Shown here piece by piece: positions 1 through 25,687 of a DNA stretch of 32,000 bases. The position numbers were made by a program, and so were the translations under genes. The notes beneath the pieces were generated by a model. That model was not told the origin of the DNA, made no database searches, and saw only the letters and a list, made by a program, of their open reading frames with translations. Every line of letters starts with the position of its first letter. Within the stretch, counting starts at the first letter, position 1. This stretch comes from Pseudothioglobus sp. nBUS_23 (GTDB lineage Bacteria; Pseudomonadota; Gammaproteobacteria; PS1; Pseudothioglobaceae), in NCBI RefSeq assembly GCF_051201565.1, contig NZ_CP179200.1, positions 90,001 through 122,000 on the forward strand, in the 5' to 3' direction.

Positions 1-650
1 CAATCCCAATAGTTAAAGATTCAAGAATTGGTTGGATTAAGAATATTCTATTTAGAGATTTAGATAATGATGGGGACATAGATTTATATCTAAACTCCAT
101 GGATCAAAGCACTAATGGTTCAGTTTTTGTAAATAATGGCGACTTTAACTTTTCATTAATAATGCCACCTGAGGCATACAAGTTATATGGGTCGCTAGCG
201 CAAAATGGCATAATTGAGTCTCTCGTAGATAGAGAAGAAAAAGTAAGTCAGCTTGCTGAACTTAAAAAGAAACAAGAAGAGGAAAAAGCTAAAAGGCTTG
301 CCAAGGATAGGGAAAATAAAAAAAATAATTTTAAATATTCGTCACGAAACTTTAAATCTCAGTTAAAACTATTACAGACTCAAGGTAATTTAGCGGTTTG
401 TAAAGCTATTTTAAAAGAGTTCCATGCTGGTGATTACTACAGCCAAACTAATAAAGAAACTTATTTATTTATCTCCATTGATAGTAATGGCTTGGATTGT
501 CATTATGAATGGTCTAGAAATGAAAACAATGCCCTTAGACGATGTAAGCAAAATAATAAAACAGATGGTAAATGCACAATCTATGCCCTAGGTGATAACA
601 TTGTTTGGGGTGATCCTGAGCTTTATAAGGAATTAACTGGAAGAAAATAG
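1..650 (+). CDS. 3' part of a further FG-GAP/VCBS-type member of the array family (5' end lies left of the window)
   Basis: Frame 3 is open from nt 3, upstream of the track Met at 99: IPIVKDSRIGWIKNILFRDLDNDGDIDLYLNS-MDQSTNGSVFVNNGDFNFSLI. This aligns with the C-terminal part of the 10517..12088 product (ILFNDLDSDGDYDLYLAS..GTVFINNGNFDFTMI). A Lys/Glu-rich helix and a Cys-containing tail follow. Confidence 0.75.
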   Translation, partial: IPIVKDSRIGWIKNILFRDLDNDGDIDLYLNSMDQSTNGSVFVNNGDFNFSLIMPPEAYKLYGSLAQNGIIESLVDREEKVSQLAELKKKQEEEKAKRLAKDRENKKNNFKYSSRNFKSQLKLLQTQGNLAVCKAILKEFHAGDYYSQTNKETYLFISIDSNGLDCHYEWSRNENNALRRCKQNNKTDGKCTIYALGDNIVWGDPELYKELTGRK

Positions 651-805: not shown

Positions 806-2068
806 ATGAAAAAAATATTATTTATATTTGTTTTGTCTTTGTACTCTATTCAAGGATTGGCCTCATCATGTCCTGATGGAAGCGAACCAGTTAAAAGTAT
901 CTCTGATGATGGCACTTATTTTGTTTTCAATTGCCCTGATCAAGTATCTCCTGATACTGATACTAATAAAGGTCTTATTAAATCTAATGACATTAGCTTT
1001 CCAGGTAAATTTTATACAACAGAAATTAGCGCCTGTAATGCCTTAGTCCCCGTATCTTTTAGCTTGAATTCTTCTATTAATCTTGTTAAAGGTTTAGTTG
1101 GCTATGATTGGCATGCTGATTGGGAGGCAAACAGTAATTCCATGAATGTTTATCATCAAAAAATTACAGAACCAATGAATATGCTAATGGCAGCAACGCA
1201 TAACGCATTGGGAAACGATTATCAAGCTAATATTAGCATAGCTAAAAACTTGTTAATAGAACTGGCTAAAACAGATACCTTGTATGACAGTATTGGCTAT
1301 ATTGAAGTCAGAAAGAAACCTGGTTGCTATGCCGGTGGTGATATAAATGCACCCTGCTGGTACCATGAATATCAATTCGCCAGTAACGTATTTTCAAATT
1401 ACATGATTACTGCATTATGGTTGCGAGATGAACTCAACGAGCAGGAGTTTGAGATTGTAGATAAGTACATCAAAAAGATGTACAAAAAGTTTCTACAGCC
1501 AATAGAACTTCAGGAAGAGGAGCAGGGTTTTTATGCCATGGCTAATGGTGGCACATCAATTCTTGCATACGCATCTTGGACAAATGATAAAGAGCTTGCT
1601 GCAGAAGAAATAAATCACAGGTTTAAAGAAATGGATAGGCTATTCTATGATGATGGCTACATAAACAACAATTCATTCAGAGGATATAGAGGTCAATGGT
1701 ACCACTCTTATGGATTAGATATTGCACTTGGTTACGTCTATATTGCGGAATTATGGGGCGCAGAGATTCCAGACAAACTTCAAAACAAATTAGTTAAAGC
1801 ATCAGAAGTTGTAAACCTAGCTATAACTGATTGGGACAAGTTTAAAAGCAGAAAGTATGACGGCAATCAAAGTAATGCTATTAATGACCCAAATAATGCC
1901 ATAAAGCACACTCACCAAGTCGCAATTGCAATAGACACACTAATGAAAATTGTCACTGGTGTAGAACTCGAGTACGACCCTGTGTACCTTCAAAAAAGAA
2001 AGTACCAAATTGGAAAGTCCAACGGAATAGATGAATTGATTGGATTTCCCCCAAATTGTATTAATTAG
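806..2068 (+). CDS. Array family member: signal peptide + CPDGSEP Cys-loop module + all-alpha alginate-lyase-like (PF05426-like) body
   Basis: N-terminus is MKKILFIFVLSLYSIQGLASS-CPDGSEPVKSISDDGTYFVFNC. The body has segments reminiscent of the alginate_lyase fold (ALGNDYQANISIAKNLLIELAK; ALWLRDELNEQEFEIVDKYIKKM; DDGYINNNSFRGYRGQWYHSYGLDIALGYVYIAELWG). The fold assignment is from memory of the family, not a search. Confidence 0.8.
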   Translation: MKKILFIFVLSLYSIQGLASSCPDGSEPVKSISDDGTYFVFNCPDQVSPDTDTNKGLIKSNDISFPGKFYTTEISACNALVPVSFSLNSSINLVKGLVGYDWHADWEANSNSMNVYHQKITEPMNMLMAATHNALGNDYQANISIAKNLLIELAKTDTLYDSIGYIEVRKKPGCYAGGDINAPCWYHEYQFASNVFSNYMITALWLRDELNEQEFEIVDKYIKKMYKKFLQPIELQEEEQGFYAMANGGTSILAYASWTNDKELAAEEINHRFKEMDRLFYDDGYINNNSFRGYRGQWYHSYGLDIALGYVYIAELWGAEIPDKLQNKLVKASEVVNLAITDWDKFKSRKYDGNQSNAINDPNNAIKHTHQVAIAIDTLMKIVTGVELEYDPVYLQKRKYQIGKSNGIDELIGFPPNCIN

Positions 2069-2205: not shown

Positions 2206-3870
2206 ATGAAAAAACTATTCCTTCTCTTAATTCTTTCCTTCTTCTCAGTTCAAAGTTTAGCGGGGTCCTGTCCAGATGGAAGTGAGCCAATCAAGAGTAT
2301 TTCAGAGGACGGCACTTATTTTGTTTTCAACTGCGGTGTTAGCAATGAACAATCATCTTCAAATAGCAACGATTCATCTTCCTCTTCCTCAGTAAAAGCT
2401 GTTAAATTTGAATCATTTGTGGATACTGAGACATCATCAAGTTGTAAAGACCTCGATACAAATTTTTATCGTAAGAGCTCCAATAAGTGCTCAATCATTG
2501 CTGTCCTAGATAGAAAGCCTAAATTTCCAGGCGGACATTGGTTCAAGAATGTTTGGCAAACATCAGGATTGCTTATCCATCGAGTTAATAAAAATGGAAA
2601 TCTTGAAATAGTTGGTAAAGCTGAAAACATTCAAGTAGAGACAAATGAGAAAACAGATCGGCCTGGCCAAATGGAGATTGCAACCATTGAAGTTAATACA
2701 GAAGAGCTTGGCTCAAAATCTGTTGAAGTCATTAAAAACCCAATTGTTGAAATACCAGCCTCTACTATTCGAATGGTCTTGACTGATGTTAATCAAGATG
2801 GCTTAACTGAATTAGTCATTGCAGGTATGCTTGAAGATGGTAGGCATCAGGATTCATCATGGAAGGATGTGAATTATATCTATGACTTTGAGACTGAAAG
2901 CTATACAAAGTTTGGCAAACCAATGTATTCACATGACTTCGTAGCTGGAGATTTAGATGATGATGGCTATGATGATTTTATTGATATATCCTGGGGTGGA
3001 GATCATCAGGGATCGGGGATTGGTGTGTGTAATGGAAAAAGCTTGGAGTGCGTTTATCAGAACCATCCTACAAGACTTCAAACATCTAAAACATCACTTT
3101 CTGTCTATCCTAACAAAAAAGGTGGCATCTTATTTCACAACTGCGATAAGGAGTATTTAAGTTGGTGCTGGTCAGAGGTGACTTACAATAATTGGGGTAT
3201 AGAGTTAAAGCCTTTAGACAAGTATATTGCTAGTAAAAAGCCTGATAAGGAGGAGCTATTTAATAACTGGTCAGGATGGGAGCAAAAAAGAAAAGGATGG
3301 GCAGTGCCTGGATATGAAACGAGCGAAAGATTTAAATTAATCAGCGAATCCTATCGTTCTCATCAATTCGACATGGATGGCGATGGTGACTTTGATACTG
3401 CCACCTGGAAAGAAAATCGACTTTGCAAAAAATCAGCTTCAGAAAAAGTATATCAAATTACCTCCGATTGTAAACCTGTAGGAGAGATGTTTTTCTTTAG
3501 AAATGATAATGGCAAGTTTACTGTTTCGGATAGGCATGAGATTGACCCTGGCGCAACAACGCGCTTATACAGCTTCGACATAAATCAAGATGGCCATATG
3601 GATTTTTATGCCTTTAGAGACGAGTGGAATACATTTGAGTGTAATAATCAAATTAATAATATATTCTTTGGTAATGGCGATGGAACTTTTAGGAGGCCGT
3701 CAGTTAAAGAGCAAAGTGAAATCTTTGGGAACTACGGCTGTGAAATACAATCATATTTCTTCGACTTTGAGGGTGACAGCTATAGAACTTTCTTTACTCA
3801 CAAATACTCAAAGAATTTCTCTGGAAGTAGGGCAGTATATGTTGGTGTGGAGAAACTTGCTAATAATTAA
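2206..3870 (+). CDS. Array family member: signal peptide + Cys-loop module + Ser-rich linker + FG-GAP/VCBS repeat body
   Basis: N-terminus is MKKLFLLLILSFFSVQSLAGS-CPDGSEPIKSISEDGTYFVFNC, then SNEQSSSNSNDSSSSSS. DxDxDG-type repeats are present (LTDVNQDGLTELVIAG, VAGDLDDDGYDDFIDIS, FDMDGDGDFD, FDINQDGHMDFYAF). Confidence 0.85.
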   Translation: MKKLFLLLILSFFSVQSLAGSCPDGSEPIKSISEDGTYFVFNCGVSNEQSSSNSNDSSSSSSVKAVKFESFVDTETSSSCKDLDTNFYRKSSNKCSIIAVLDRKPKFPGGHWFKNVWQTSGLLIHRVNKNGNLEIVGKAENIQVETNEKTDRPGQMEIATIEVNTEELGSKSVEVIKNPIVEIPASTIRMVLTDVNQDGLTELVIAGMLEDGRHQDSSWKDVNYIYDFETESYTKFGKPMYSHDFVAGDLDDDGYDDFIDISWGGDHQGSGIGVCNGKSLECVYQNHPTRLQTSKTSLSVYPNKKGGILFHNCDKEYLSWCWSEVTYNNWGIELKPLDKYIASKKPDKEELFNNWSGWEQKRKGWAVPGYETSERFKLISESYRSHQFDMDGDGDFDTATWKENRLCKKSASEKVYQITSDCKPVGEMFFFRNDNGKFTVSDRHEIDPGATTRLYSFDINQDGHMDFYAFRDEWNTFECNNQINNIFFGNGDGTFRRPSVKEQSEIFGNYGCEIQSYFFDFEGDSYRTFFTHKYSKNFSGSRAVYVGVEKLANN

Positions 3871-3918: not shown

Positions 3919-3970
3919 CCATTCACTTACACATCAAACGTAATTTGGACTTTAGTTCAAATTGAGTCTA
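3919..3970 (+). repeat. Array intergenic element, copy 3 (variant A)
   Basis: Reads CCATTCACTTACACATCAAACGTAATTTGGACTTTAGTTCAAATTGAGTCTA. The core lies 60 nt upstream of the ATG at 3990. Confidence 0.9.
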
Positions 3971-3989: not shown

Positions 3990-5939
3990 ATGAAAAAACT
4001 ACTCTTATTTTTAATTTTATTTTTCTTTTCAATACAAAGTTATGCAAACTCCTGCCCTGATGGCAGTGACCCAGTTAGGAGTATTTCTGCTGATGGTACT
4101 TATTTCGTCTTTAACTGCAGTAGTAATAGTGAAAATGCTTCTCAGTCCAATAATTCAGCTTCAACTGAGGAAAAAACTCAAATTGAGTGGGTTGATGGTT
4201 TATATGCAAAATCAATAACAGATGAATTCAATGTCTTAAGCAAAGATTTCAGTAAGTCTGTCGAATCTGGGGGTTCAATGATTACACCCCTTGGTTCGGG
4301 TGATTTTTCAGGAGACGGCATGCCTGAAATTGTTTACGGCATACAATATTGGGATTTAAAAAAAGGCTCTCATATTAAGCCAATATTTTTGACAAAAACT
4401 CCTGGCAAGGGTTTTTCTTTGTTTAGACCAATAATGGATATAGTTCCATATACTTGCAATGCTAGAAGTTCGGTCATTGAGGATTTCAATGGAGATGGGG
4501 TCAACGATATTTTCATTGCTGACACTGGAGTTGACTATGATCCATTTCCTGGCTGCCAAAACTCATTAATCTTGAGCGCTCCTAACGGCAAATTTATAAA
4601 TGCTACTTCAAACTTACCACAAATATTAGACTTTACTCATGGAGTTACCAGTGGAGATGTTGACTCAGATGGGGATATTGATTTGTTTGTTACGCAAGCA
4701 GGCATTGACGTTAATGTACCCCATTATTTCTTAAGAAATAATGGCAAAGGTAGATTTACTAAAATTCCAGATGGGCAACTATTAGATAGGGGTCTTTCTT
4801 ATATATCGTGGAAACCTGGTAATAAAAGAAGAAACATTTTCTATACTCCAGGTTTGGAGTTTGTTGATGATGATGACAAGCTTGATTTAATTCTTTTAAG
4901 TGGCAAGCTTGAAGGTGTTGACAACAACAGAATAATTTTTGGTTCGAATTCTGGATTCAAAAAAAGCGATGCCCTTGAACTTCAACCCGGAAGATTTGGC
5001 AGGAAAAGTGCTGGATACAATTATCTCGTAACAGATATTGATAATGATGGTGATAACGATATATTGATACTTCATGTAACCATAAACCTATTGATAGAGC
5101 GGAGTCATCTCGGCATAGATCTTCAAGTTCTTATCCAAGAAAATAATCGAAAATTCGTCGATAAAAGTAATTTTTATTTTCCAGGAATTACCTTTGATTA
5201 TGGAACGTGGAACAAATCGCTTAATTTGATAGATATAAATAATGACGATAAAAATGATATTGTATTGGTTTCTGGTAACGGAATTGACGACCCATCCAAA
5301 CAGCAAATAGGAAGTCAAATTAAAACAAGCCCGCCTAAGGTGTTGATTAGACAAGAGGATGGCTCATTTAGACCTCTAAATAATGATTTACTTACTGGGG
5401 GAGAAAAAAACACTCTTGCAGGTATTCGCCCAATCGATATAGATAATGACGGAGATATAGAATTTGTTGTCCATAAAGGCTCAGAAAAAGGGTTTACTCT
5501 TCAAGTACTCGAGTTAACAACTAATAAAGATGAATCCACGTTGGAGTCCTTTAGACCCACCCATAGCAATCGCTCGTCAGATACAGTTCTAAGTAGCCCG
5601 TTATTTGATGGACGCTATTCTTTTACTATATCACGCTTCAATGAAAATGATGGAAGTCAGCGCCTAGGAAATGGTTATATTGAAATCAACAATGGAATCA
5701 TGACTGTGGCAAAAGAGGGTCGCACTCTAGATAAAAGAATTGGTTCAATAGACTTGTATGATTCATTTAAAGGTCAAATTGATAAGGAAGGCAATATTAT
5801 CAGTTCGCTTAAAATAAATGTCTTGACTGGAAAGACCCATTTATTTTTAGTAGATTTAAATGGGAGTATCGATAGCCCATTACAAGGTGAGTGGGACCAT
5901 TATTTTGACGTGATTTTGAAGTTGGATAAAAAAGAGTAA
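3990..5939 (+). CDS. Array family member: signal peptide + Cys-loop module + FG-GAP/VCBS body + C-terminal FDGRYSF module
   Basis: N-terminus is MKKLLLFLILFFFSIQSYANS-CPDGSDPVRSISADGTYFVFNC, then a Ser/Asn linker. Repeats include FSGDGMPEIVYG, EDFNGDGVNDIFIAD, TSGDVDSDGDIDLFVT, VTDIDNDGDNDILIL, LIDINNDDKNDIVLV and IDIDNDGDIEFVV. The last ~113 aa are homologous to the C-terminus of the 7972..10113 product. Confidence 0.85.
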   Translation: MKKLLLFLILFFFSIQSYANSCPDGSDPVRSISADGTYFVFNCSSNSENASQSNNSASTEEKTQIEWVDGLYAKSITDEFNVLSKDFSKSVESGGSMITPLGSGDFSGDGMPEIVYGIQYWDLKKGSHIKPIFLTKTPGKGFSLFRPIMDIVPYTCNARSSVIEDFNGDGVNDIFIADTGVDYDPFPGCQNSLILSAPNGKFINATSNLPQILDFTHGVTSGDVDSDGDIDLFVTQAGIDVNVPHYFLRNNGKGRFTKIPDGQLLDRGLSYISWKPGNKRRNIFYTPGLEFVDDDDKLDLILLSGKLEGVDNNRIIFGSNSGFKKSDALELQPGRFGRKSAGYNYLVTDIDNDGDNDILILHVTINLLIERSHLGIDLQVLIQENNRKFVDKSNFYFPGITFDYGTWNKSLNLIDINNDDKNDIVLVSGNGIDDPSKQQIGSQIKTSPPKVLIRQEDGSFRPLNNDLLTGGEKNTLAGIRPIDIDNDGDIEFVVHKGSEKGFTLQVLELTTNKDESTLESFRPTHSNRSSDTVLSSPLFDGRYSFTISRFNENDGSQRLGNGYIEINNGIMTVAKEGRTLDKRIGSIDLYDSFKGQIDKEGNIISSLKINVLTGKTHLFLVDLNGSIDSPLQGEWDHYFDVILKLDKKE

Positions 5940-5948
5940 GTCAAAAAC

Positions 5949-6000
5949 CACCCTCCCTCACACATCAAACGAAATTTGGATTTCTATTTGAGCTATAATT
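5949..6000 (+). repeat. Array intergenic element, copy 4 (variant B)
   Basis: Reads CACCCTCCCTCACACATCAAACGAAATTTGGATTTCTATTTGAGCTATAATT. It starts 9 nt after the stop at 5939. TATAAT lies at 5994..5999. Confidence 0.9.
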
Positions 6001-6033: not shown

Positions 6034-7857
6034 ATGAAAAAAATATTATTTATTTTTGTGCTGTCTTTGTATTCAATTCAAGGATTTGCTTCATCATGCC
6101 CTGATGGCAGTGAGCCAGTAAGGAGTATTTCTGCTGATGGAACTTATTATGTTTTTAGCTGCGAGGGTGGAAACAAAAAAGCATCTTCATCTAATACGAA
6201 TATAAATGTAGGGCCAGTAAGCATTAATATCCACGATGAGTACCATTATAATAATTTTCCTGGACTTGTCAGTTTAGACTTTGCCTTTGCGATTAGAACA
6301 GCCTTTTATGGATATGTCCAAATACCCTTGATTGATGTCAATGATGATGGACACAAAGATTTGATATTTAATTCAGACCCACCTTACGCTGGACCTAATG
6401 TTGAAGTTACACAAAACACTGCGAATTTAGTGGTATCTCCTTGGCTTGAGGAGTGGAAAGAATACGATATGATTGATACACTCGAATCACCAAATACCAC
6501 ATTTGGAAGAGGTGATAACATTCGAGTCGCTGACTTCAATGGTGACGGCAGAATGGATATGGTAATCGCGTCAAGTAGTCTGGGACAAATTGACGGTCGG
6601 TTTGATTATGGAGGCGTAATAGTACTTACAAATACAGGTAAAGGTATATTTACTCCCAAGTATATTGGCAAAAAACAATTCACTCACGCACACGGTGTTG
6701 GCGATGTAGATAGTGACGGTGATATTGATATTATCTATCATCAATTAAATGATAAAAATATTTTGTGTGCTTACAACGACGGCAAAGCAAATTTCACAGT
6801 CAAACCGTGTCTGCGAACACCAATAGATACAATACGAGGATTCATTCAAAATGTTTGGGGTTTTCGTATTGCCGACTATGATAACGACGGATTTAATGAT
6901 GTTCTTGTTTTAGCACACCACGGCCCTAAAAAAACAACCTTCTTTCAACATCAATATCGTAACAACCAACTAAAGAACCCAGGAATATTTTGGGGCAATG
7001 GAAGTGGCCAGTTCTCTTGGAATGATATGACATTTATCGACTTATCTGAATGGAATGATAAACCATTTGACCAAGGTGAAGTTTACTTTGATGGTTCAGG
7101 AGCAAGTCAAACCACAGTAGATATTGGTAATGATGGTGATGTTGATATTGCTATCAATATATTATCCAAGTGGACTGTAGGTAGTGCGGTTGTGTTAGTT
7201 GAAAATTTAGGTAATCGAGAGTTTACGACTAAAGAGATTACTCGTTCAAAGTACCTAAAAGAAGACCCCAAACGTTTTCGCACAATTCAGGACAAACATA
7301 CACAAGCCAGTACTCCTGTTAATTTGCACGAAGGTATCGTTTGGAACCAGGCTTGTATGCCAAAGTTTATTGATTTAAATAGCGACAACATAGATGACAT
7401 GATTTGTGAAGGTATCTCTTATGTTGTTACTAATGAAATTGCAAAAAGTGATTGGGAGAATCATTCACCCGAGCATCAACGAATTACTCCTTTTGCAAAT
7501 ACGAGTGACTGGACTTGGGATTGGAGTATGGGCCAAACTTATTACATCTTAGACGAAGAAAGCAATGTGCTTGATGAAGGTCATATCTTTAACAAGACTA
7601 GAAGTGACTTTTCTAATGAATTCAAACGTGGTGGTTACAAAATCAAAACAGTTGGGTATAGATTTCAGAATGACTCTACTAGTCAAGCACAAATAGCAAC
7701 AGAGATTGCTGCTCAAGAGTTAATGGATGAAATATTAGAGGAAGTTGACGACAAAGTTTCTTTACCTGTTATTAAAGAAAAAACATCAGCAGAGATAGCT
7801 GCTCAAGAGTTAATGGATGAAATATTAGAAGAATTAGAAGCAGAATCTAGTCAGTAA
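6034..7857 (+). CDS. Array family member: signal peptide + Cys-loop module + FG-GAP/VCBS body + acidic helical tail with internal duplication
   Basis: N-terminus is MKKILFIFVLSLYSIQGFASS-CPDGSEPVRSISADGTYYVFSC. Repeats include VADFNGDGRMDMVIAS, GVGDVDSDGDIDIIYH, IADYDNDGFNDVLVLA and VDIGNDGDVDIAINI. The tail carries EIAAQELMDEILEE twice. Confidence 0.85.
   Translation: MKKILFIFVLSLYSIQGFASSCPDGSEPVRSISADGTYYVFSCEGGNKKASSSNTNINVGPVSINIHDEYHYNNFPGLVSLDFAFAIRTAFYGYVQIPLIDVNDDGHKDLIFNSDPPYAGPNVEVTQNTANLVVSPWLEEWKEYDMIDTLESPNTTFGRGDNIRVADFNGDGRMDMVIASSSLGQIDGRFDYGGVIVLTNTGKGIFTPKYIGKKQFTHAHGVGDVDSDGDIDIIYHQLNDKNILCAYNDGKANFTVKPCLRTPIDTIRGFIQNVWGFRIADYDNDGFNDVLVLAHHGPKKTTFFQHQYRNNQLKNPGIFWGNGSGQFSWNDMTFIDLSEWNDKPFDQGEVYFDGSGASQTTVDIGNDGDVDIAINILSKWTVGSAVVLVENLGNREFTTKEITRSKYLKEDPKRFRTIQDKHTQASTPVNLHEGIVWNQACMPKFIDLNSDNIDDMICEGISYVVTNEIAKSDWENHSPEHQRITPFANTSDWTWDWSMGQTYYILDEESNVLDEGHIFNKTRSDFSNEFKRGGYKIKTVGYRFQNDSTSQAQIATEIAAQELMDEILEEVDDKVSLPVIKEKTSAEIAAQELMDEILEELEAESSQ
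7701..7834 (+). repeat. In-frame direct repeat (two ~44-nt copies, period 90 nt) within the acidic tail of the 6034..7857 CDS
   Basis: 7701..7744 (agagattgctgctcaagagttaatggatgaaatattagaggaag) and 7791..7834 (agagatagctgctcaagagttaatggatgaaatattagaagaat) differ at 2 positions in the first 42 by hand alignment. Confidence 0.85.
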
Positions 7858-7892: not shown

Positions 7893-7943
7893 CTTCCTCA
7901 CTTACACATCAAACGAAATTTGAATTCCTTTTGAACTATAATT
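7893..7943 (+). repeat. Array intergenic element, copy 5 (variant B)
   Basis: Reads CTTCCTCACTTACACATCAAACGAAATTTGAATTCCTTTTGAACTATAATTT. TATAAT at 7937..7942 lies 30 nt before the ATG at 7972. The sequence just upstream (7861..7892) is also homologous to 695..725. Confidence 0.9.
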
Positions 7944-7971: not shown

Positions 7972-10113
7972 ATGAAAAAAATATTATTTATTTTTGTGCT
8001 GTCTTTGTATTCAATTCAAGGATTTGCCTCATCATGCCCTGATGGCAGTGAGCCAGTAAGGAGTATTTCCGATGATGGTACTTATTATGTATTTAACTGC
8101 TCAGAGCCAGTTTCAACTTCTGAAGATTCAAGCCCTCGCTCTAGCAAACTACTTCCAGACAAGCTTAAAGAAATCAAAGTGGTAAAGGATTGGGAGCCCA
8201 TTGCTGATTGGGAGTCTGTAAAAGAATATGCTAAGCTGGTTCCAATTCCCAGATGGAAAAATGAAAGTATTTATGATCAATATGTTGACAGAAATTGTAG
8301 TGAGAGATTTACGAGCGTAAACCCTTATCCAGGTGATAATCCTTCAGCAAGAATTTTTGCGCATTGTCAATCATACCTTCATGCAGCGTCTTCAAATAAC
8401 CCACAAATACTAGGTGACATTTTACTGTCCTGGGCCTCAGCTTCAAAAGATCCAATGTTTGTTGTGCCTTATGAGGTTGAAACCCATGAAATCAAACATT
8501 CTGTTGCAGGCTACAATATCCCATCAGCCATTGGCACATTTGCCCAGTCTTATGCATTCTGGTATGACGAAATAGCATACACGCCAGAGGAGCGTCAACG
8601 GGTAGATGATTACATGACTAAGAAACTAATGGAGCAAAAATTTCTCCCGATAAGTCGTGACTACAATGGACCGCGCATTAAATGTGATATTAATGATCTT
8701 AGTAGCGTTTACAGTGAACGAACCGGCACAAATAACTGTGGCAATGTGCGAATGAAAGTAGCAGTGGGTGAAATTATGCTTGGTTTTAGATTAGAAAACC
8801 AAACTTTGTTAGATAAAGGGCATGATGATATGTATGTCGTGCATGCCTTTATTAATGAAGACGGTATTAATATCAATCATGCTTCAAGGGGCGGTAATAC
8901 AGTGAACTACTCTTGGGAATACACATACTACTCAAGTCTATTAGCAGAGATATATGATTCAGTTGGTTATGACTATTTTGAGCATACGCTTCCTCGCGGG
9001 GCAAAAGTTCATGAGTATTTAAGCTTTAATTACAGGCTATTAAAAGATTTTAAGCTGACTGCCCAATGGGCAAAATATAATATTGGGTCATTGTGGCTGC
9101 CCTATGATCAGATCAAGAATTTATCACAACAATTATATGAAAAAACTACTAATGGGGGATGGGCTTATAGCTGGGAGGATGGTGATAAAGAGTTTGTAAA
9201 AGCACACACTAAATTTGTGAAGCGTTATATGCCAGAGCTTTACAATTTTGATGTAAAAAATTACATGGGTTCAAATTTTAATGATTCACCTAATTTTGGT
9301 GTTCATCCCTACATGCTCCATATAGGTAATAACGTATTAGAAGAAAATTCTAATACTTCAAAGATTGAACTTTTACGTCAAGCTAAGTTACAAGAAGAAA
9401 TTGATCAATGTGCTAAAGCAACTTCTGATAGTGGGTTTAATGGCGAATATGAGGCCAAATGGTTTCGAGATCATTGGAATGGCAATGGTGAGTGGGAGTT
9501 TGTAGGCTCAGAGCCTCTCATTCTAGATCAATGCGAAGGTGAATTTGAAGGCTTAAAACAATTTGATCCTCGCCCTACACCAGCAGTTAGAAAAAAGCTA
9601 ATTGTCAAGTATCAATCAAATGGTGACATTTCAATTAAGGGTGATTTGAATTTATATACTATTGATGACCTTAGATATACCGAACTTTATGGAAATATTA
9701 ATGATGGTGAAATTTCAGGAGTTTGGGGCTTTGGTAATCGCCTAAAGATAGAGTTTTCCAAGAAACCAAAGCCAACAGAACTCTTTGATGGTCGCTATAG
9801 TTTTGAATTGTTTCGTTATGCAGAGGATGAAGCTGACGATATAGGCAATGGCATCATTAACATATCTAATGGTCAAATAACTATTGATGAGAGTAATCGA
9901 AATTTGCAAACAGGAGATTCAGATTTGTATGATACTTTTAGTGGTCAAGTTGATAAAAATGGAGACGTATCTGGCTCTGTTAAACTCGATATTTATAGTT
10001 CGGGACAAAAATCAGAAGAATTTTTCTTTGAAGGCCTGATAGATGAAGAAATATGGGGAGAATCTCCTATAGAAGACTTTTTCAAAGTTTATATGAAACT
10101 AAAAAAGCAATAG
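7972..10113 (+). CDS. Array family member: signal peptide + Cys-loop module + alginate-lyase-like all-alpha body + C-terminal FDGRYSF module
   Basis: N-terminus is MKKILFIFVLSLYSIQGFASS-CPDGSEPVRSISDDGTYYVFNC. The body resembles the 806..2068 body (ERQRVDDYMTKKLMEQKFLPI versus FEIVDKYIKKMYKKFLQPI; NEDGININHASRGGNTVNYSWEYTYYSSLLAEIYDSVGYDYF). The C-terminal 111 aa are homologous to the tail of the 3990..5939 product. Confidence 0.85.
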   Translation: MKKILFIFVLSLYSIQGFASSCPDGSEPVRSISDDGTYYVFNCSEPVSTSEDSSPRSSKLLPDKLKEIKVVKDWEPIADWESVKEYAKLVPIPRWKNESIYDQYVDRNCSERFTSVNPYPGDNPSARIFAHCQSYLHAASSNNPQILGDILLSWASASKDPMFVVPYEVETHEIKHSVAGYNIPSAIGTFAQSYAFWYDEIAYTPEERQRVDDYMTKKLMEQKFLPISRDYNGPRIKCDINDLSSVYSERTGTNNCGNVRMKVAVGEIMLGFRLENQTLLDKGHDDMYVVHAFINEDGININHASRGGNTVNYSWEYTYYSSLLAEIYDSVGYDYFEHTLPRGAKVHEYLSFNYRLLKDFKLTAQWAKYNIGSLWLPYDQIKNLSQQLYEKTTNGGWAYSWEDGDKEFVKAHTKFVKRYMPELYNFDVKNYMGSNFNDSPNFGVHPYMLHIGNNVLEENSNTSKIELLRQAKLQEEIDQCAKATSDSGFNGEYEAKWFRDHWNGNGEWEFVGSEPLILDQCEGEFEGLKQFDPRPTPAVRKKLIVKYQSNGDISIKGDLNLYTIDDLRYTELYGNINDGEISGVWGFGNRLKIEFSKKPKPTELFDGRYSFELFRYAEDEADDIGNGIINISNGQITIDESNRNLQTGDSDLYDTFSGQVDKNGDVSGSVKLDIYSSGQKSEEFFFEGLIDEEIWGESPIEDFFKVYMKLKKQ

Positions 10114-10115
10114 AA

Positions 10116-10170
10116 ACTCCCTCCCTCACACATCAAACGAGATTTGGACTTTAGTTCTAATTGACATATA
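10116..10170 (+). repeat. Array intergenic element, copy 6 (variant A)
   Basis: Reads ACTCCCTCCCTCACACATCAAACGAGATTTGGACTTTAGTTCTAATTGACATATA. It starts 2 nt after the stop at 10113. The core lies 68 nt upstream of the ATG at 10198. Confidence 0.9.
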
Positions 10171-10197: not shown

Positions 10198-10431
10198 ATG
10201 ATGCGATTTGCTAAATACGAACAACACTTAAAGTGGTTCGCACTATTCCTTGGTATCCTAAGCACAATTGCCATTATCAATGACTTGTATCCTTATACAA
10301 TGTTTATTGGACTTCCTTTTTGCTTAATCTGGGTTTACTGTGCTTGGCTTCATACTGAAAAACAATTGAAATGGATTAATATAATCTTTACTGGGTTATA
10401 TACATATGGAATAGTGAATTACTATATTTAG
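10198..10431 (+). CDS. Small (77 aa) predicted 3-TM membrane protein, bracketed by two copies of the array element
   Basis: There are three hydrophobic stretches (WFALFLGILSTIAIINDLY, MFIGLPFCLIWVYCAWL, WINIIFTGLYTYGIVNYYI). A strong SD (AGGAGA) lies 6-7 nt upstream. No array-family N-terminal module is present. Confidence 0.65.
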   Translation: MMRFAKYEQHLKWFALFLGILSTIAIINDLYPYTMFIGLPFCLIWVYCAWLHTEKQLKWINIIFTGLYTYGIVNYYI

Positions 10432-10442
10432 CATTAATTAAT

Positions 10443-10493
10443 ACCCCTCCCTCACACATCAAACGGAATTTGGACTTTAGTTCAAATTGAGTC
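10443..10493 (+). repeat. Array intergenic element, copy 7 (variant A)
   Basis: Reads ACCCCTCCCTCACACATCAAACGGAATTTGGACTTTAGTTCAAATTGAGTC. The core lies 61 nt upstream of the ATG at 10517. Confidence 0.9.
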
Positions 10494-10516: not shown

Positions 10517-12088
10517 ATGAAAAAACTATTCCCTCTCTTAATTCTGTCCTTCTTATCAGTCCAAAGTCTTGCGGGTTCATGCCCTGATGGCAGTGAGCCA
10601 ATTAAGAGTATTTCAGAGGACGGCACTTACTTTGTATTCAACTGTGGTGGTGGCAATAAACAATCATCTTCATCTACTGCTAATTCATCAAATGTCAATT
10701 CAAAAACAAAAGCATTAGCTGGTATTTATATTGAGAATGATCCCAATATTAATTTCTTTGCTCCGCCATCACATCCTCCACCAACAAGAGTGCTATACCC
10801 TGGAACAGGTGGATATTTTAAGGCTGATTTTAATAATGATGGTCTAACTGATCTTATCTATGCTGGTGGAATGCATGCAGAAAACTATGGCTGTTCTTAT
10901 CAAGATAGATGTACTCTCCAACAGCAGGATGATGGTATTAAACCACAACCTGCACTTTATATGGGCGGCGCTGATGGTAAGTTTAACTACTCGCCTGAGC
11001 TGTTGATTGATAATCGTGACAATAAAGGCATGTCAGTTGGAAGGCAGTTACTAATCGCAGACTATAATAATGATAAAGTGTTAGATATTTATATTGCAGA
11101 CCACGGACAGACGCATCAAAACCAAGGTTATCGTGATAGTTATTATCTAAGTCAGCCAAATGGAACGTGGCTCGAGTCAAGTAACACCCATCTTAGTGAT
11201 AATAACTTCATAGCGTATGCACACGGCGCGGCTACCGGCGATATTGATAATGATGGCGATATGGATGTTGTGCTAACTGACTGGAGAACGTTTTGGTGTT
11301 TAATGAATGATGGTAGTGGGTTTTTAGCAAAACGTCAATGTGGCGGCAGTAATGCATTTGGTCTGGAGCTAGCTGATATGGACAATGATGGCAACTTAGA
11401 TGCTATATTTGGCGGTAATGAATATGGGGGCAATGGTTTCCCAACTGGAATTTACTGGAATGATGGTCAAGGAAATTTTATACCCTATACCATAACCCGA
11501 CTTAAGCAACACAAAGTATGGGGGGGAATATCTGAAGTATCGGCCTGGGATTTAGACAATGACGGTGATATGGACATAGTTTATGGTAGGAATAAAAAAT
11601 CAATTAAAGGAGCTGCGATACAAATTATAGAAAACTTAGGTAACAAGAAGTTTAAGGACCATGGAATCTTTCCAGTAGATAGTAACTTTAGTGTTTTTAT
11701 CATGTCTATTCTATTCAATGATTTAGATTCTGATGGTGATTATGATTTGTATCTTGCTTCAAAATCTCATTTGACTGATGGAACAGTTTTTATAAACAAC
11801 GGTAATTTTGATTTTACAATGATTAAGCCAGATGATAGACCGTCACCTAAATCATTAGGACTTTATGAAATGTTAGATGATAGCAGTGTAGTAATACCTA
11901 AAAAAGTATTAGAAGAACTTGCCGCAGAAGAAGAAGCTAAAGCTAAAAGTTATAGAGAAGCCTTAGCAGCTAATCTCAAACGTATCGCTGAAAAAGCTGA
12001 TAAGGCAACAGAAAATGAAACTGAGCAATCGATTGAAGATGAAATCGCAGCGTTTGAAGCTGAACTAGAAGCAGAACTTGGTCAGTAA
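10517..12088 (+). CDS. Array family member: signal peptide + Cys-loop module + FG-GAP/VCBS body + acidic coiled-coil-like tail
   Basis: N-terminus is MKKLFPLLILSFLSVQSLAGS-CPDGSEPIKSISEDGTYFVFNC, then a GGGNKQSSSSTANSSNVNS linker. Repeats include KADFNNDGLTDLIYAG, IADYNNDKVLDIYIAD, ATGDIDNDGDMDVVLTD, LADMDNDGNLDAIFGG, AWDLDNDGDMDIVYG and FNDLDSDGDYDLYLAS. The tail reads EELAAEEEAKAKSYREALAANLKR..IEDEIAAFEAELEAELGQ. Confidence 0.85.
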   Translation: MKKLFPLLILSFLSVQSLAGSCPDGSEPIKSISEDGTYFVFNCGGGNKQSSSSTANSSNVNSKTKALAGIYIENDPNINFFAPPSHPPPTRVLYPGTGGYFKADFNNDGLTDLIYAGGMHAENYGCSYQDRCTLQQQDDGIKPQPALYMGGADGKFNYSPELLIDNRDNKGMSVGRQLLIADYNNDKVLDIYIADHGQTHQNQGYRDSYYLSQPNGTWLESSNTHLSDNNFIAYAHGAATGDIDNDGDMDVVLTDWRTFWCLMNDGSGFLAKRQCGGSNAFGLELADMDNDGNLDAIFGGNEYGGNGFPTGIYWNDGQGNFIPYTITRLKQHKVWGGISEVSAWDLDNDGDMDIVYGRNKKSIKGAAIQIIENLGNKKFKDHGIFPVDSNFSVFIMSILFNDLDSDGDYDLYLASKSHLTDGTVFINNGNFDFTMIKPDDRPSPKSLGLYEMLDDSSVVIPKKVLEELAAEEEAKAKSYREALAANLKRIAEKADKATENETEQSIEDEIAAFEAELEAELGQ

Positions 12089-12090
12089 TT

Positions 12091-12130
12091 AACCTCCCTC
12101 ACACATCAAACGAAATTTGGACTTTAGTTA
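12091..12130 (+). repeat. Array intergenic element, copy 8 (terminal copy, truncated after CTTTAGTTA; no downstream + strand gene)
   Basis: Reads AACCTCCCTCACACATCAAACGAAATTTGGACTTTAGTTA and starts 2 nt after the stop at 12088. Confidence 0.9.
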
Positions 12131-23469: not shown

Positions 23470-24174
23470 TTAGGCTTCTGATTCTTTAACAGCAACATTC
23501 CAAATAATCAAACCAAATAGGATTTTGTTAACAAAATCCGCAAGGTTATATACGATATTCAGAGTGCCGTTATCTACGGAGCCCATCATGTAGCCGAAAA
23601 TGTATCCTAATGGATAAATTGCCCAGCCAACGAGCACGATAAGTCTCAGCGCATTGAAAGCTGCTTTCACACCAGCATTAGCCTCTGCGGCTTTACTTGC
23701 CTCTCCACCAAAGATTTCCCAGATGATAACAGCCCAACCAATCATACCAATAATGAATCCTAGGCTTGCTGACATAACGCCTGCTTCACCAAGGTAACCA
23801 CCAATGAGCATGACCAGGGTACCTATGAGAAGTCTCCAGAACGAGCTAGAGGAAACTGCAGCACCTACGGCCTTAAGAATAATAAAGAATTCAATCATTA
23901 ATAGAGGCACTGTAATTAGCCAATCAATGTATCGGTAGACAATTGGAGACTGAGCCTCACCAGCGATGAGCGAAGCAACCCAGTAGTCTCTCATGTAGAG
24001 ATAATGAACACCTGCAACTAATGTTACTAGTCCAGCAACTGTCATTGAAAGTCTCCACTCCTTTTTTACTGCCATTCCTTCATAAAAAAAGAACACAGTT
24101 GCAGCAACCATAGCTACAGAGACAATCCAGAAAGAAACGCCGACAAAATCGCCGTCTTGTAAAAAATGTTCCAT
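23470..24174 (-). CDS. Proteorhodopsin (light-driven proton pump, green-tuned type)
   Basis: The C-terminus NLADFVNKILFGLIIWNVAVKES is near-identical to classical proteorhodopsin, with the Schiff-base Lys in DFVNK. RYIDWLITVPLLMIEF provides the D/T/E motif (equivalents of D97, T101, E108) and Leu at the position-105 equivalent. VHYLYM retains the His75 equivalent. The SD AAGGAG lies upstream. Confidence 0.95.
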   Translation of the reverse strand: MEHFLQDGDFVGVSFWIVSVAMVAATVFFFYEGMAVKKEWRLSMTVAGLVTLVAGVHYLYMRDYWVASLIAGEAQSPIVYRYIDWLITVPLLMIEFFIILKAVGAAVSSSSFWRLLIGTLVMLIGGYLGEAGVMSASLGFIIGMIGWAVIIWEIFGGEASKAAEANAGVKAAFNALRLIVLVGWAIYPLGYIFGYMMGSVDNGTLNIVYNLADFVNKILFGLIIWNVAVKESEA

Positions 24175-25096: not shown

Positions 25097-25687
25097 TTAT
25101 CTAGTGTGAAGTGAGTATTTTTCGAAGCCTATGTCGCCAGACCATCGCCATGCGGTAAAGACGAATGAGTTAGTGGTTATTGAAGTATGAAGAACGCTAG
25201 AGGGGTGATAAATGTAGGTATTTGGCCCTTGAACTTTTGACTCATTCGATTCAGTTGTCCACGAAGCTTCTCCATTAAAAATGAAAAATGTTTCCTCGGC
25301 TGCATGCTGTCTCGGTCCATAGACAATGTTTTTATTCTGAAGCCACAGACCGACACGAACAGTGTCATTGAAAAAAATACCATCAGGTCCCACTAGTTCA
25401 GCCATCGGCATCTGATTTGCCAAATCATCCGGTATTCTCCCTTCCCTTAAATCAGAACTAGTCCACTTAATATTCGGAGATGCTTTTAAAACCAGACTGT
25501 TTAAAAAGTGACCTTGTATGTTGAGACTAGATTCAACTTCATCTAAAAATGGGTTTGTAAATGTTTTAGGCTCTTTTATTTGATGACTAGCATCAATAAG
25601 TGCATCTGCTGCTTGCTTGCCGCCTTTACGGTCTTCCAAATTAAATATTTCTGATAGAGACAAATATAGCTGCTTTAATGGCTCCAT
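25097..25687 (-). CDS. Cupin-fold protein resembling the DMSP-lyase (DddL/Q/W, PF16867) family, with atypical active-site residues
   Basis: YGPRQHAAEETFFIFNGEASW resembles the family motif YP.H.H.AEE.Y.vl.GeA.W. Here the first His is not conserved and Phe replaces the motif Tyr. A second cupin His lies in YHPSSVLHT. The gene starts 6 nt downstream of the Rieske gene. Confidence 0.5.
   Translation of the reverse strand: MEPLKQLYLSLSEIFNLEDRKGGKQAADALIDASHQIKEPKTFTNPFLDEVESSLNIQGHFLNSLVLKASPNIKWTSSDLREGRIPDDLANQMPMAELVGPDGIFFNDTVRVGLWLQNKNIVYGPRQHAAEETFFIFNGEASWTTESNESKVQGPNTYIYHPSSVLHTSITTNSFVFTAWRWSGDIGFEKYSLHTR

Follow-up and report, generated by a model that had tools for sequence, protein, structure and literature searches.

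Short, conserved and lineage-restricted tags that a genome carries several times, on numerous unrelated exported proteins, are known from the PEP-CTERM/exosortase, GlyGly-CTERM/rhombosortase and LPXTG/sortase systems and from the T9SS C-terminal domain. The element described here, a Cys-bounded 22-residue motif with a predicted hairpin fold, shares all of these properties, but it is N-terminal, presumably disulfide-stapled and devoid of a transmembrane helix, and no cognate processing enzyme, as in the C-terminal sorting tags, was found for it. Another system that comes close is the lipoprotein signal (Lgt, LspA, Lnt), which likewise combines a signal peptide, a Cys close to it and a Ser-rich disordered stretch before the body of the protein. 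The hairpin tag differs from it in that it has no Leu at -3, admits residues beyond G, A and S at -1 and appears to hold its Cys in a self-contained pair.

Secreted CAZymes, whether built on dockerin-cohesin pairs or on carbohydrate-binding modules (CBMs) with polyserine linkers, also join a small terminal module and a Ser-rich linker to diverse catalytic bodies. The hairpin, however, measures only 22 residues with one putative disulfide, matches no CBM or dockerin model and has no known cohesin-like partner. A type I dockerin consists of a tandem pair of EF-hand-like, Ca-binding segments, each about 22 residues long, and has a cognate cohesin, whereas the tag is a single 22-residue unit without a duplicated Ca-binding segment, without a Pfam dockerin match and without a recurrent partner gene at 38 loci.

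The strand-turn-strand pattern SIS-x-DGT-x-Y-V is shared with PQQ-like propeller blades (PDB 3hxj; the designed Scone and Cake), but the likeness spans only 12 residues and the blades lack the CPDGSEP flank and the closing Cys. There is no propeller here: only one hairpin is present, the per-stretch PDB scores reach at most 5.7 bits, which is non-significant, and no Pfam PQQ model matches. The likeness supports the hairpin prediction and not homology. The precursor of the Stx2 B subunit has an MKK..A.A signal peptide, a Cys two residues on and a beta1-beta2 hairpin, and it is the best NCBIfam match of the tag (19.9 bits, cut-off 165); the toxin Cys, in contrast, pairs with a distant Cys of the OB fold, and kinship was rejected in favour of a chance resemblance, the match being driven by the signal peptide.

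Six tagged genes and their bodies

The window, which is the whole analysed stretch of 32,000 nucleotides from Pseudothioglobus sp. nBUS_23, contains six plus-strand ORFs of 420-713 aa whose translations open with a signal peptide followed by the motif (Table 1). The first-pass annotation had placed the module at these six intervals, and it is indeed present in all six translations, each time where a long ORF begins; the contexts that it gave for the first Cys are likewise correct, namely LASSC (806), LAGSC (2206, 10517), YANSC (3990) and FASSC (6034, 7972). The product of the exemplar gene matches hypothetical protein ACMAZA_00480 (Pseudothioglobus sp. nBUS_23) at 100% identity. Its body begins KLLPDKLKEIKVVKDWEP, which is the point where SAR11-type orthologues start right after their signal peptide. 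Rfam and tRNA scans of the window returned no matches.

Table 1. Coordinates of the tagged genes, the parts of the exemplar and the upstream box within the window
Feature	Position	Strand	Gene or evidence
Exemplar gene	7972..10113	+	alginate-lyase family body
Exemplar signal peptide MKKILFIFVLSLYSIQGFASS	7972..8034	+	n-region KK, hydrophobic core, [SG]-[FYL]-A upstream of Cys1
Exemplar Cys-bounded 22-residue hairpin (predicted) CPDGSEPVRSISDDGTYYVFNC	8035..8100	+	conserved core, AF2 model, Cys parity, pN/pS 0.18
Exemplar low-complexity spacer SEPVSTSEDSSPRSS	8101..8145	+	pLDDT <50; Ser/Asn composition
Signal peptide and hairpin, 420-aa alginate-lyase-like protein	806..934	+	ORF 806..2068
Signal peptide and hairpin, 554-aa FG-GAP protein	2206..2334	+	ORF 2206..3870
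Signal peptide and hairpin, 649-aa FG-GAP protein, YANSC copy	3990..4118	+	ORF 3990..5939
Signal peptide and hairpin, 607-aa FG-GAP protein	6034..6162	+	ORF 6034..7857
Signal peptide and hairpin, 523-aa FG-GAP protein	10517..10645	+	ORF 10517..12088
Promoter-like box upstream of exemplar ACACATCAAACGNAATTTG	7904..7922	+	conserved
Further box copies	737, 2100, 3929, 5960, 10128, 10454, 12101

Among the bodies of 53 full-length carriers, Pfam recognises 25 families, including FG-GAP, Polysacc_lyase, Alginate_lyase, Sel1, SNase, GH5 and GH113 as well as trypsin, PAE, DLH, beta-lactamase and S9 domains. The earlier view that the bodies are unrelated is borne out by BLASTP, in which the proteins at 806 and 7972 share their first 54 aa only. 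The same body also occurs behind a plain signal peptide (the SAR11 type; P0018), behind another Cys-bounded module or behind a lipobox and the hairpin; judged from these sequences, the module is separable from the body. Clustering of the neighbourhoods of 38 loci revealed no recurrent accessory or partner gene; the synteny is that of subfamilies only, with an ORF pair that adjoins the short (~245-aa) hairpin subfamily.

Conservation and phyletic range

The consensus of the six copies is C-PDGS[ED]P-x-[KR]-SIS-x-DGTY[FY]VF-[NS]-C. The number of near-invariant positions had been put at 20 of 22, which is too high: 16 of the 22 are strictly invariant among the six copies, and the changes at the variable positions (6, 8, 9, 13, 18 and 21) are mostly conservative. 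In the wider family, represented by 168 N-termini, the motif is always 22 residues long, and 11 positions (C1, P2, D3, G4, S5, P7, S12, D14, G15, Y17 and C22) are at least 97% invariant. An exhaustive profile search of 1.84 billion proteins yielded 281 clusters at E <= 1e-3, the best with E = 6.5e-29, and the recurrence of the motif is far beyond chance. Nearly all of the clusters belong to SUP05/Thioglobus/Pseudothioglobus, and the 38 genomic loci with the motif lie nearly all in Thioglobaceae SAGs, MAGs or genomes. The motif occupies residues ~22-43, directly behind the signal peptide, in every non-chimeric member. The chimeric ORFs P0113 and P0135 hold internal partial copies, which include the signal-peptide tail.

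Pfam and NCBIfam scans of the six whole proteins found no model that covers the N-terminus, and the isolated module, searched at E <= 10, matched only LPAM_1 (11.4 bits, cut-off 20) and the Stx2B model; the Stx2B and BamI matches were discarded as driven by the signal peptide and far under the cut-off. A sequence-profile search of the PDB returned only local likeness to propeller-blade hairpins, the best E-value in a Foldseek comparison of the AF2 model with the PDB was 1.5, a value without meaning for a hairpin, and literature searches on the motif strings and on Thioglobus secretion found nothing relevant. The tag looks like a handle without an earlier description.

Comparison of 820 pairs of DNA copies gave, for the motif, a pS of 0.60, a pN of 0.106 and a pN/pS of 0.18, and the Ser10 codons are drawn from both AGT and TCN. 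Since synonymous sites are near saturation while pN is low, the peptide itself is under selection. The first-pass annotation had argued from conservation for an independent function of the motif, a claim that is supported by this purifying selection and by the persistence of the hairpin behind another type of export signal.

Signal peptide and predicted cleavage

The signal peptide of the family is composed of MKK, a hydrophobic core of 10-12 residues and the sequence S-x-Q-[SG]-[FYL]-A, and it has the charged n-region, the h-region and the small residues at the cleavage site that are typical of signal peptidase I (SPase I) substrates. Positions -5 to -3 from Cys1 read [AGS]-x-A in 159 of the 168 N-termini, which fits SPase I. 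The cut in the exemplar is predicted after Ala19 (nt 8028|8029); alternatively, it may fall directly before Cys22 of the precursor, and a cleavage site A-x-[SG] abutting Cys1 also fits most members.

Two readings had been proposed for this region, the first with SPase I cleavage after the Ala and a Cys-Cys loop, the second with lipidation of the first Cys. The former is favoured by the [SG]-[FYL]-A signature (159/168), by the even Cys parity and by the AF2 hairpin, both described below, and the latter is not supported. The strict lipobox [LVI][ASTVI][GAS]C is found in one of the 168 N-termini and fails in all six window copies, which read AS-S-C, AG-S-C or AN-S-C up to the first Cys. Position -3 from Cys1 is Ala in 161 of the 168, position -1 is D, E, K, Y, I or T in nine, and genuine lipoproteins of the same lineage have L[SI]GC. 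Relatives of the tagged proteins also include orthologues on phage-like contigs, in which a canonical lipobox Cys is followed downstream by an intact two-Cys hairpin, so that the lipobox Cys is a third, separate Cys that lies 7-12 residues upstream of the hairpin. For one protein with lipobox plus hairpin, P0218, no relative was found in a phage GenBank collection or in an IMG/VR scan.

Probable cysteine pairing and predicted structure

Of 58 full-length carriers, 55 have an even number of Cys residues downstream of the motif (p = 2e-13), and all six window proteins do too. The alginate-lyase body without the hairpin has four Cys in 61 of 61 SAR11-type orthologues; with the hairpin, the count is 4 + 2, and with a true lipobox ahead of the hairpin it is 1 + 2 + 4. 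By these counts the Cys pair of the motif is self-contained, whereas the thiol of a lipoprotein +1 Cys is taken by the lipid and not by a disulfide; they thus speak indirectly against a lipidated Cys1. A disulfide between the two motif cysteines probably forms.

The AF2 model places strands at residues 10-13 and 19-22 of the mature N-terminus, VRSI and YYVF in the exemplar, which together form a beta-hairpin. Block-mean pLDDT is 69-83 over the first 20 residues and then 47-49 in the linker; the overall mean of 62 is moderate, and the input alignment was shallow and of low diversity. The modelled architecture is one of a hairpin and then a disordered, Ser/Asn-rich linker, whose first 20 aa past the motif contain 22% Ser and 14% Asn (7% each in the bodies) and whose length has a median of ~17 aa and ranges from almost none to ~90.

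Upstream box and probable gene conversion

The promoter-like box is present in eight copies in the window, against 0.08 expected, and it co-occurs with the signal peptide and the motif in two linked subtypes. Motif-less genes also have the box ahead of them, and in one case no gene follows it. A role of this intergenic box like that of an integron attC site was rejected, as paired core sites are absent and the geometry is that of a promoter, and a sigma-54 promoter was rejected for want of a conserved GC at -12. A generic scan for sigma-70 promoters plus terminators gave 48 sites against 44 expected. The copies at 6034 and 7972 differ little at synonymous sites, with a pS of 0.07 for the signal peptide and of 0.22 for the motif, a pattern that looks like recent gene conversion. 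Because the signal peptide and the box are conserved alongside the motif, part of the similarity is due to co-inheritance or gene conversion, and the likeness within the window comes partly from a co-inherited 5' cassette of promoter box, signal peptide and motif.

Proposed role of the tag

The explanation put forward here, to which an even chance is given, is that the tag is an autonomous, disulfide-closed N-terminal handle that, together with its spacer, docks many exoenzymes to one envelope partner. The anatomy of the tag is well supported. Each carrier would be exported by Sec via an ordinary type I signal peptide and be cleaved most likely behind the conserved Ala, two residues ahead of the first Cys. 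The two cysteines of the motif would pair once in the oxidising periplasm and thereby staple a beta-hairpin at the mature N-terminus, with strands of about [VI]-[KR]-S-[IV] and Y-[FY]-V-[FY] and an x-D-G turn between them, and a disordered Ser/Asn/Gly-rich spacer would link this hairpin to the varied enzymatic or repeat-containing bodies. With these parts combined, the hairpin would thus be an autonomous, lineage-specific handle and not a lipobox. Its Ser- and aromatic-rich face may dock to one shared partner in the envelope, a protein or a surface glycan, which would hold the exoenzymes at the cell, while the spacer supplies reach.

A more speculative and rather doubtful extension is that the tag serves as the recognition element of an N-terminal display system in the globally abundant gammaproteobacteria SUP05 / Arctic96BD-19, with one envelope receptor or export gate. 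If this were true, the receptor or gate would read the stapled tag and in this way position all exoenzymes of the cell or release them, and phages would have borrowed the tag and joined it to a lipid anchor.

SUP05/Thioglobus/Pseudothioglobus rank with the most abundant gammaproteobacteria of the sea, and the use of extracellular enzymes by such streamlined cells is poorly understood; Pseudothioglobus strains are culturable. The presence of the tag on at least 281 protein clusters allows a sequence-based listing of the exoproteome of the lineage, whose carriers include polysaccharide lyases, glycosidases, proteases, nucleases and FG-GAP proteins. Docking to a single partner, if it takes place, would place the tag, N-terminal and dependent on a disulfide, beside the C-terminal sorting tags of other bacteria as their counterpart.

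Alternative explanations

The hairpin could instead be a sorting or secretion signal for a dedicated outer-membrane export route that takes the exoenzymes, or lipoproteins where a lipobox is present, to the surface or the medium, with no static tether. This is unlikely, although the fixed site directly behind the signal peptide in every non-chimeric member, the extreme conservation over many client proteins and the nature of the carriers, which are polymer-degrading enzymes expected to work outside the cell, all agree with it. Lipobox and hairpin together would also suit a surface-exposure signal for lipoproteins, to which the lipoprotein export signal of Bacteroidota is analogous. However, no export machinery is tied to the motif at the 38 loci, a long disordered spacer is more usual in tethers, and a periplasmic site is just as conceivable for the Sel1/TPR, beta-lactamase-fold and DLH bodies.

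Less likely again is a partnerless hairpin, at most a protease-resistant cap, that rides among paralogues on a mobile 5' expression-and-export cassette, which would consist of the promoter box, the signal peptide and the first 24 mature residues and be spread by recombination. Mobility of this kind would fit the two linked subtypes, the orthologous bodies that bear either signal subtype, the near identity of the 6034 and 7972 copies at synonymous sites, the internal copies in P0113 and P0135, and the boxes that stand ahead of motif-less genes or of no gene. It does not fit the overall near-saturation of pS at a pN of 0.11, the 11 positions that are essentially invariant between genera, or the hairpin with both Cys that is kept when a lipoprotein signal and another spacer replace the signal peptide.

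Quite improbable is a minimal carbohydrate-binding module, which would aim the enzymes at polysaccharides or particles and not at the producing cell. The tag is also borne by proteases, nucleases, Sel1/TPR and esterase-type bodies, shows no likeness to Pfam CBM families and, with 22 residues, is smaller than known CBMs; in its favour are the invariant Tyr, Phe/Tyr and Ser in a small hairpin, the CAZyme-like architecture of module, Ser-rich linker and catalytic domain, and the many bodies that are polysaccharide lyases or glycoside hydrolases.

An atypical lipobox with Cys1 at +1, which would make the carriers lipoproteins tethered by hairpin and linker, is very improbable indeed, for even though a relaxed PROSITE-like pattern fits 113 of the 168 N-termini, the Ser-rich disordered stretch behind the Cys region recalls lipoprotein tethers and LPAM_1 matches weakly below its threshold, the strict pattern and the residues at -3 and -1 speak against it, Cys22 would stay unpaired by Cys parity, lipoproteins of the lineage use L[SI]GC, and homologues with a canonical lipobox carry its Cys in addition to a complete hairpin.

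About two thirds of the N-termini conform to relaxed lipobox patterns, and such patterns could mislabel carriers of the tag as lipoproteins. A separate observation concerns the proteins in which lipobox and hairpin coexist: the two would be partly redundant if the hairpin only tethered, which speaks against a pure tether.

The gene array and its shared N-terminus

The Cys-bounded segment that the first-pass annotation had placed at six intervals is present in all six, and each interval forms the 5' start of a long plus-strand ORF. In translation, all six follow one order, with M-K-K, a hydrophobic core, S-x-Q-[SG]-[FLY]-A-x-S and then the 22-residue motif C-PDGS[ED]P-[VI]-[KR]-SIS-x-DGTY[FY]VF-[NS]-C. 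The near-invariance of 20 of 22 positions claimed for it is too high, as 16 of 22 are strictly invariant among the six copies, although the differences are conservative. That the motif precedes unrelated bodies is borne out by BLASTP of the 806 against the 7972 protein (named by ORF start), in which similarity is confined to the first 54 residues; common to the 3990 and 7972 proteins are the N-terminal module and a C-terminal domain, and not their bodies. The 7972 protein is 100% identical to the hypothetical protein ACMAZA_00480 of Pseudothioglobus sp. nBUS_23, which is encoded on a contig of 1.79 Mb.

Since the partial gene at the left edge is the 3' end of a further FG-GAP paralogue, the tandem array comprises at least seven genes. 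The encoded sequence (..RDLDNDGDIDLYLNS..GSVFVNNGDFNFSLI..) is similar to the C-terminal region of the 10517 protein. The array also holds a small hydrophobic ORF lacking the hairpin, with its own promoter-box copy and a Shine-Dalgarno-like AGGAG.

Features of the array and its surroundings (window coordinates)
Feature	Position	Strand	Remarks
Seventh FG-GAP paralogue, 3' end	3-650	+	gene start left of window; ORF entry 99..650
Motif ORF 806	806..2068	+	alginate-lyase-like
Motif ORF 2206	2206..3870	+	FG-GAP
Motif ORF 3990	3990..5939	+	FG-GAP
Motif ORF 6034	6034..7857	+	FG-GAP
Motif ORF 7972	7972..10113	+	alginate-lyase-like
Motif ORF 10517	10517..12088	+	FG-GAP
Hydrophobic ORF	10198-10431	+	77 aa; membrane protein by eye
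Common C-terminal domain (~115 aa)	5595-5933 (3990 protein); 9775-10110 (7972 protein)	+	39% identity, E = 1e-17
Acidic helical tail, 6034 protein	~7669-7854	+	EIAAQELMDEILEELEAE
Acidic helical tail, 10517 protein	~11891-12085	+	EDEIAAFEAELEAELGQ
Non-coding box ACACATCAAACGNAATTTG within CCCTCCCTCACACATCAAACGAAATTTGGAC	737-755, 2100-2118, 3929-3947, 5960-5978, 7904-7922, 10128-10146, 10454-10472, 12101-12119	+	
Proteorhodopsin-type gene, downstream of array	23470-24174	-	Bac_rhodopsin, E = 2.5e-48
DMSP-lyase-family gene, downstream of array	25097-25687	-	

Processing of the N-terminus

Two readings had been proposed for the first Cys, namely signal peptidase I (SPase I) cleavage followed by a disulfide loop, or lipidation. 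Comparison of 168 N-termini (those of the six window proteins and 162 from the database) argues for the former. A strict lipobox, [LVI][ASTVI][GAS]C, occurs in 1 of 168; relative to the first Cys, 161 have Ala at position -3, and nine have D, E, K, Y, I or T at position -1. Three lipoproteins without the motif, encoded at loci of the same lineage, have a canonical LSGC or LIGC. Two residues further upstream, 159 of the 168 carry an [AGS]-x-A triplet with a bulky F, Y or L in the middle, which reads as the classic (-3,-1) pattern of SPase I; A-x-[SG] immediately before the Cys is a possible, less conserved alternative site. Behind the motif, 55 of 58 full-length carriers have an even number of Cys residues, as do all six window proteins (4, 10, 2, 4, 6 and 4; binomial p = 2e-13), and therefore the two Cys of the motif probably pair with each other; lipidation of Cys1 would leave Cys22 without a partner.

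Different N-termini on orthologous bodies

Orthologues of the 7972 body carry four kinds of N-terminus. The first is the Thioglobaceae form, with signal peptide and hairpin as in the window. In the second, found in about 60 proteins of 407-415 aa, one of them named Ca. Pelagibacter, a plain signal peptide sits directly on KEKLLPN, and the body has four Cys in 61/61 proteins of 405-416 aa. The third, of Oceanospirillaceae type, has a different Cys-bounded module, WSDKTVCRLAKATPDN.EYQ.EL..RGLSC, which takes the place of the hairpin and leads into a Ser-rich linker; the short forms have 2 + 4 Cys. This module, carried by the database proteins P0190, P0197-P0200, P0203-P0205 and P0217 and by the N-terminus of P0135, has no match in Pfam; an enzyme joined by a Ser linker to a Cys-bounded handle may be a general design among marine Gammaproteobacteria.

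In the fourth kind, 9-12 spacer residues separate a canonical lipobox (LTAC, LSAC or MAAC) from a hairpin that has diverged but is still complete, C[SP][ND]G[DS].P[TA]K[STA][VI]S[AP]DGSYY[VI][WY].C, giving 1 + 2 + 4 Cys. This layout recurs in an FG-GAP orthologue encoded on an IMG/VR contig, LMLGC-SGVTKAGG-CLDGSKPVKSISADGTYFVYNC. Lipidation, in the variants that use it, has a Cys of its own and the hairpin retains its two, which tells further against a lipidated Cys1. Such variants occur at locus L039, 10001-11449 (P0218), and on the viral contig L042, 525-2093, with a G+C of about 36%, near that of the host lineage. On one contig with a gene of the fourth kind, the neighbours are phage-like (among them genes for a PHROG virion structural protein and an exonuclease, ThyX and QueE-like genes), and these variants may be host exoenzyme genes acquired by phage, with the export signal swapped.

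In another database protein, P0018, hairpin and linker are precisely missing, and the signal peptide (..QGFAS) sits directly on NTYDSFPVHEFAKSPLRDLKV; the same body has the hairpin in front, with or without a long linker, in P0048, P0012 and P0041. Altogether, 25 Pfam families occur among 53 full-length carriers, including FG-GAP, Polysacc_lyase, Alginate_lyase, Sel1, SNase, GH5, GH113, trypsin, PAE, DLH, beta-lactamase and S9.

Selection and copying of the 5' cassette

The window and related loci together supplied 41 distinct DNA copies, in which pairwise identity of the motif is 0.91, 0.875 and 0.59 at codon positions 1, 2 and 3. The Nei-Gojobori proportions pS and pN over 820 pairs are 0.60 and 0.106 for the motif and 0.63 and 0.25 for the signal peptide, and Ser10 is encoded by both AGT and TCN; the motif peptide is therefore under strong purifying selection.

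The invariant ACACATCAAACGNAATTTG box occurs eight times in the window (0.08 expected), in every intergenic gap of the array and 50-105 nt upstream of 6/6 motif-gene starts, and 16 of the 38 related loci have it too. Box, signal peptide and motif form two linked subtypes, either signal subtype occurs on orthologous bodies, and the 6034/7972 pair is almost identical at synonymous sites (pS 0.07 and 0.22). Recombination of the 5' cassette therefore inflates similarity within the window; it does not account for the family-wide conservation. The geometry TTGGAC-17 nt-TATAAT in the 10128 copy and many loci suggests that the box is a strong conserved promoter, and with ATG only ~6-7 nt past the -10 hexamer in many loci, the mRNAs are possibly leaderless. 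The box is also found upstream of genes without the motif, among them a canonical lipoprotein in locus L013, and the 12101 copy has no gene downstream.

Distribution of the family

When a profile built from 17 N-termini was run exhaustively over 1.84 billion representative proteins, 281 clusters matched at E <= 1e-3, 210 of them at E <= 1e-10. Of the 150 matches listed, nearly all begin within the first 30 residues. Two are internal, in P0113 (residues 239-252) and P0135 (residues 298-330), where a partial or complete module brings the signal-peptide tail too (FAGSC.., GLAGSC..); these look like fusions of genes that recombined at the conserved 5' cassette, or like chimeras that arose where the metagenome assembly met this repeated sequence. 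A genomic scan of one genome per species yields 38 loci, almost all in SUP05, Ca. Thioglobus or Ca. Pseudothioglobus SAGs, MAGs and genomes, the exceptions being a single genome of Ca. Njordibacter and a few short contigs from other bins. Neither Pfam nor NCBIfam has a model for the motif, and a text search with motif strings found no relevant paper among those searched; the hairpin is a real and undescribed feature. The G+C of the window (31-40%) is consistent with this low-GC marine lineage, and its proteorhodopsin and DMSP-lyase genes fit a heterotrophic surface-ocean Pseudothioglobus.

Structure and possible function

From a 22-sequence alignment, AF2 models the mature N-terminus as a beta-hairpin whose strands span residues 10-13 and 19-22 of the mature protein. 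The first 20 residues have block-mean pLDDT values of 69 and 83, which drop to 47-49 past residue 30, in the linker. Foldseek returns no significant match for the hairpin model. The sole sequence resemblance of the motif in the PDB is to blade hairpins of PQQ-like propellers (AISEDGTIYV), a likeness that fits the tight x-D-G turn and does not point to homology. Ser accounts for 22%, Asn for 14% and Gly for 9% of the 20 residues past the second Cys, whereas each makes up about 7% of the bodies, and the linker has an estimated median length of 17 residues (range 0-93).

Sec export with SPase I-type processing, a self-contained Cys1-Cys22 pair closing the hairpin at the mature N-terminus, and a disordered spacer are well supported, as is a lineage-restricted tag on many unrelated exported proteins. 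The module would be read by one common partner, because strong constraint across clients, terminal position, exposed Tyr, Phe and Ser on the hairpin and a flexible spacer together lead one to expect it; no recurrent partner gene adjoining the motif loci was found. We favour non-covalent docking of the hairpin to an envelope component, a function that we infer. The hairpin may instead be a signal for sorting or outer-membrane export, bind glycans as a minimal module, or be a passively co-inherited cap. We rate it as belonging with the conserved terminal tags or handles of exported modular proteins.

Other recurrent modules

The C-terminal domain common to the 3990 and 7972 proteins (LFDGRYSF..GNG.I.I.NG..T......DLYD.F.GQ.DK.G) has no family match and is a second shuffled module. 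It comes almost directly behind the hairpin in P0099, P0074 and P0091. The tail motif ELAEFEAELEAEL is another recurrent short module, seen also in P0032, where it comes directly behind the hairpin, in the L042 protein and, as repeats, in P0163.
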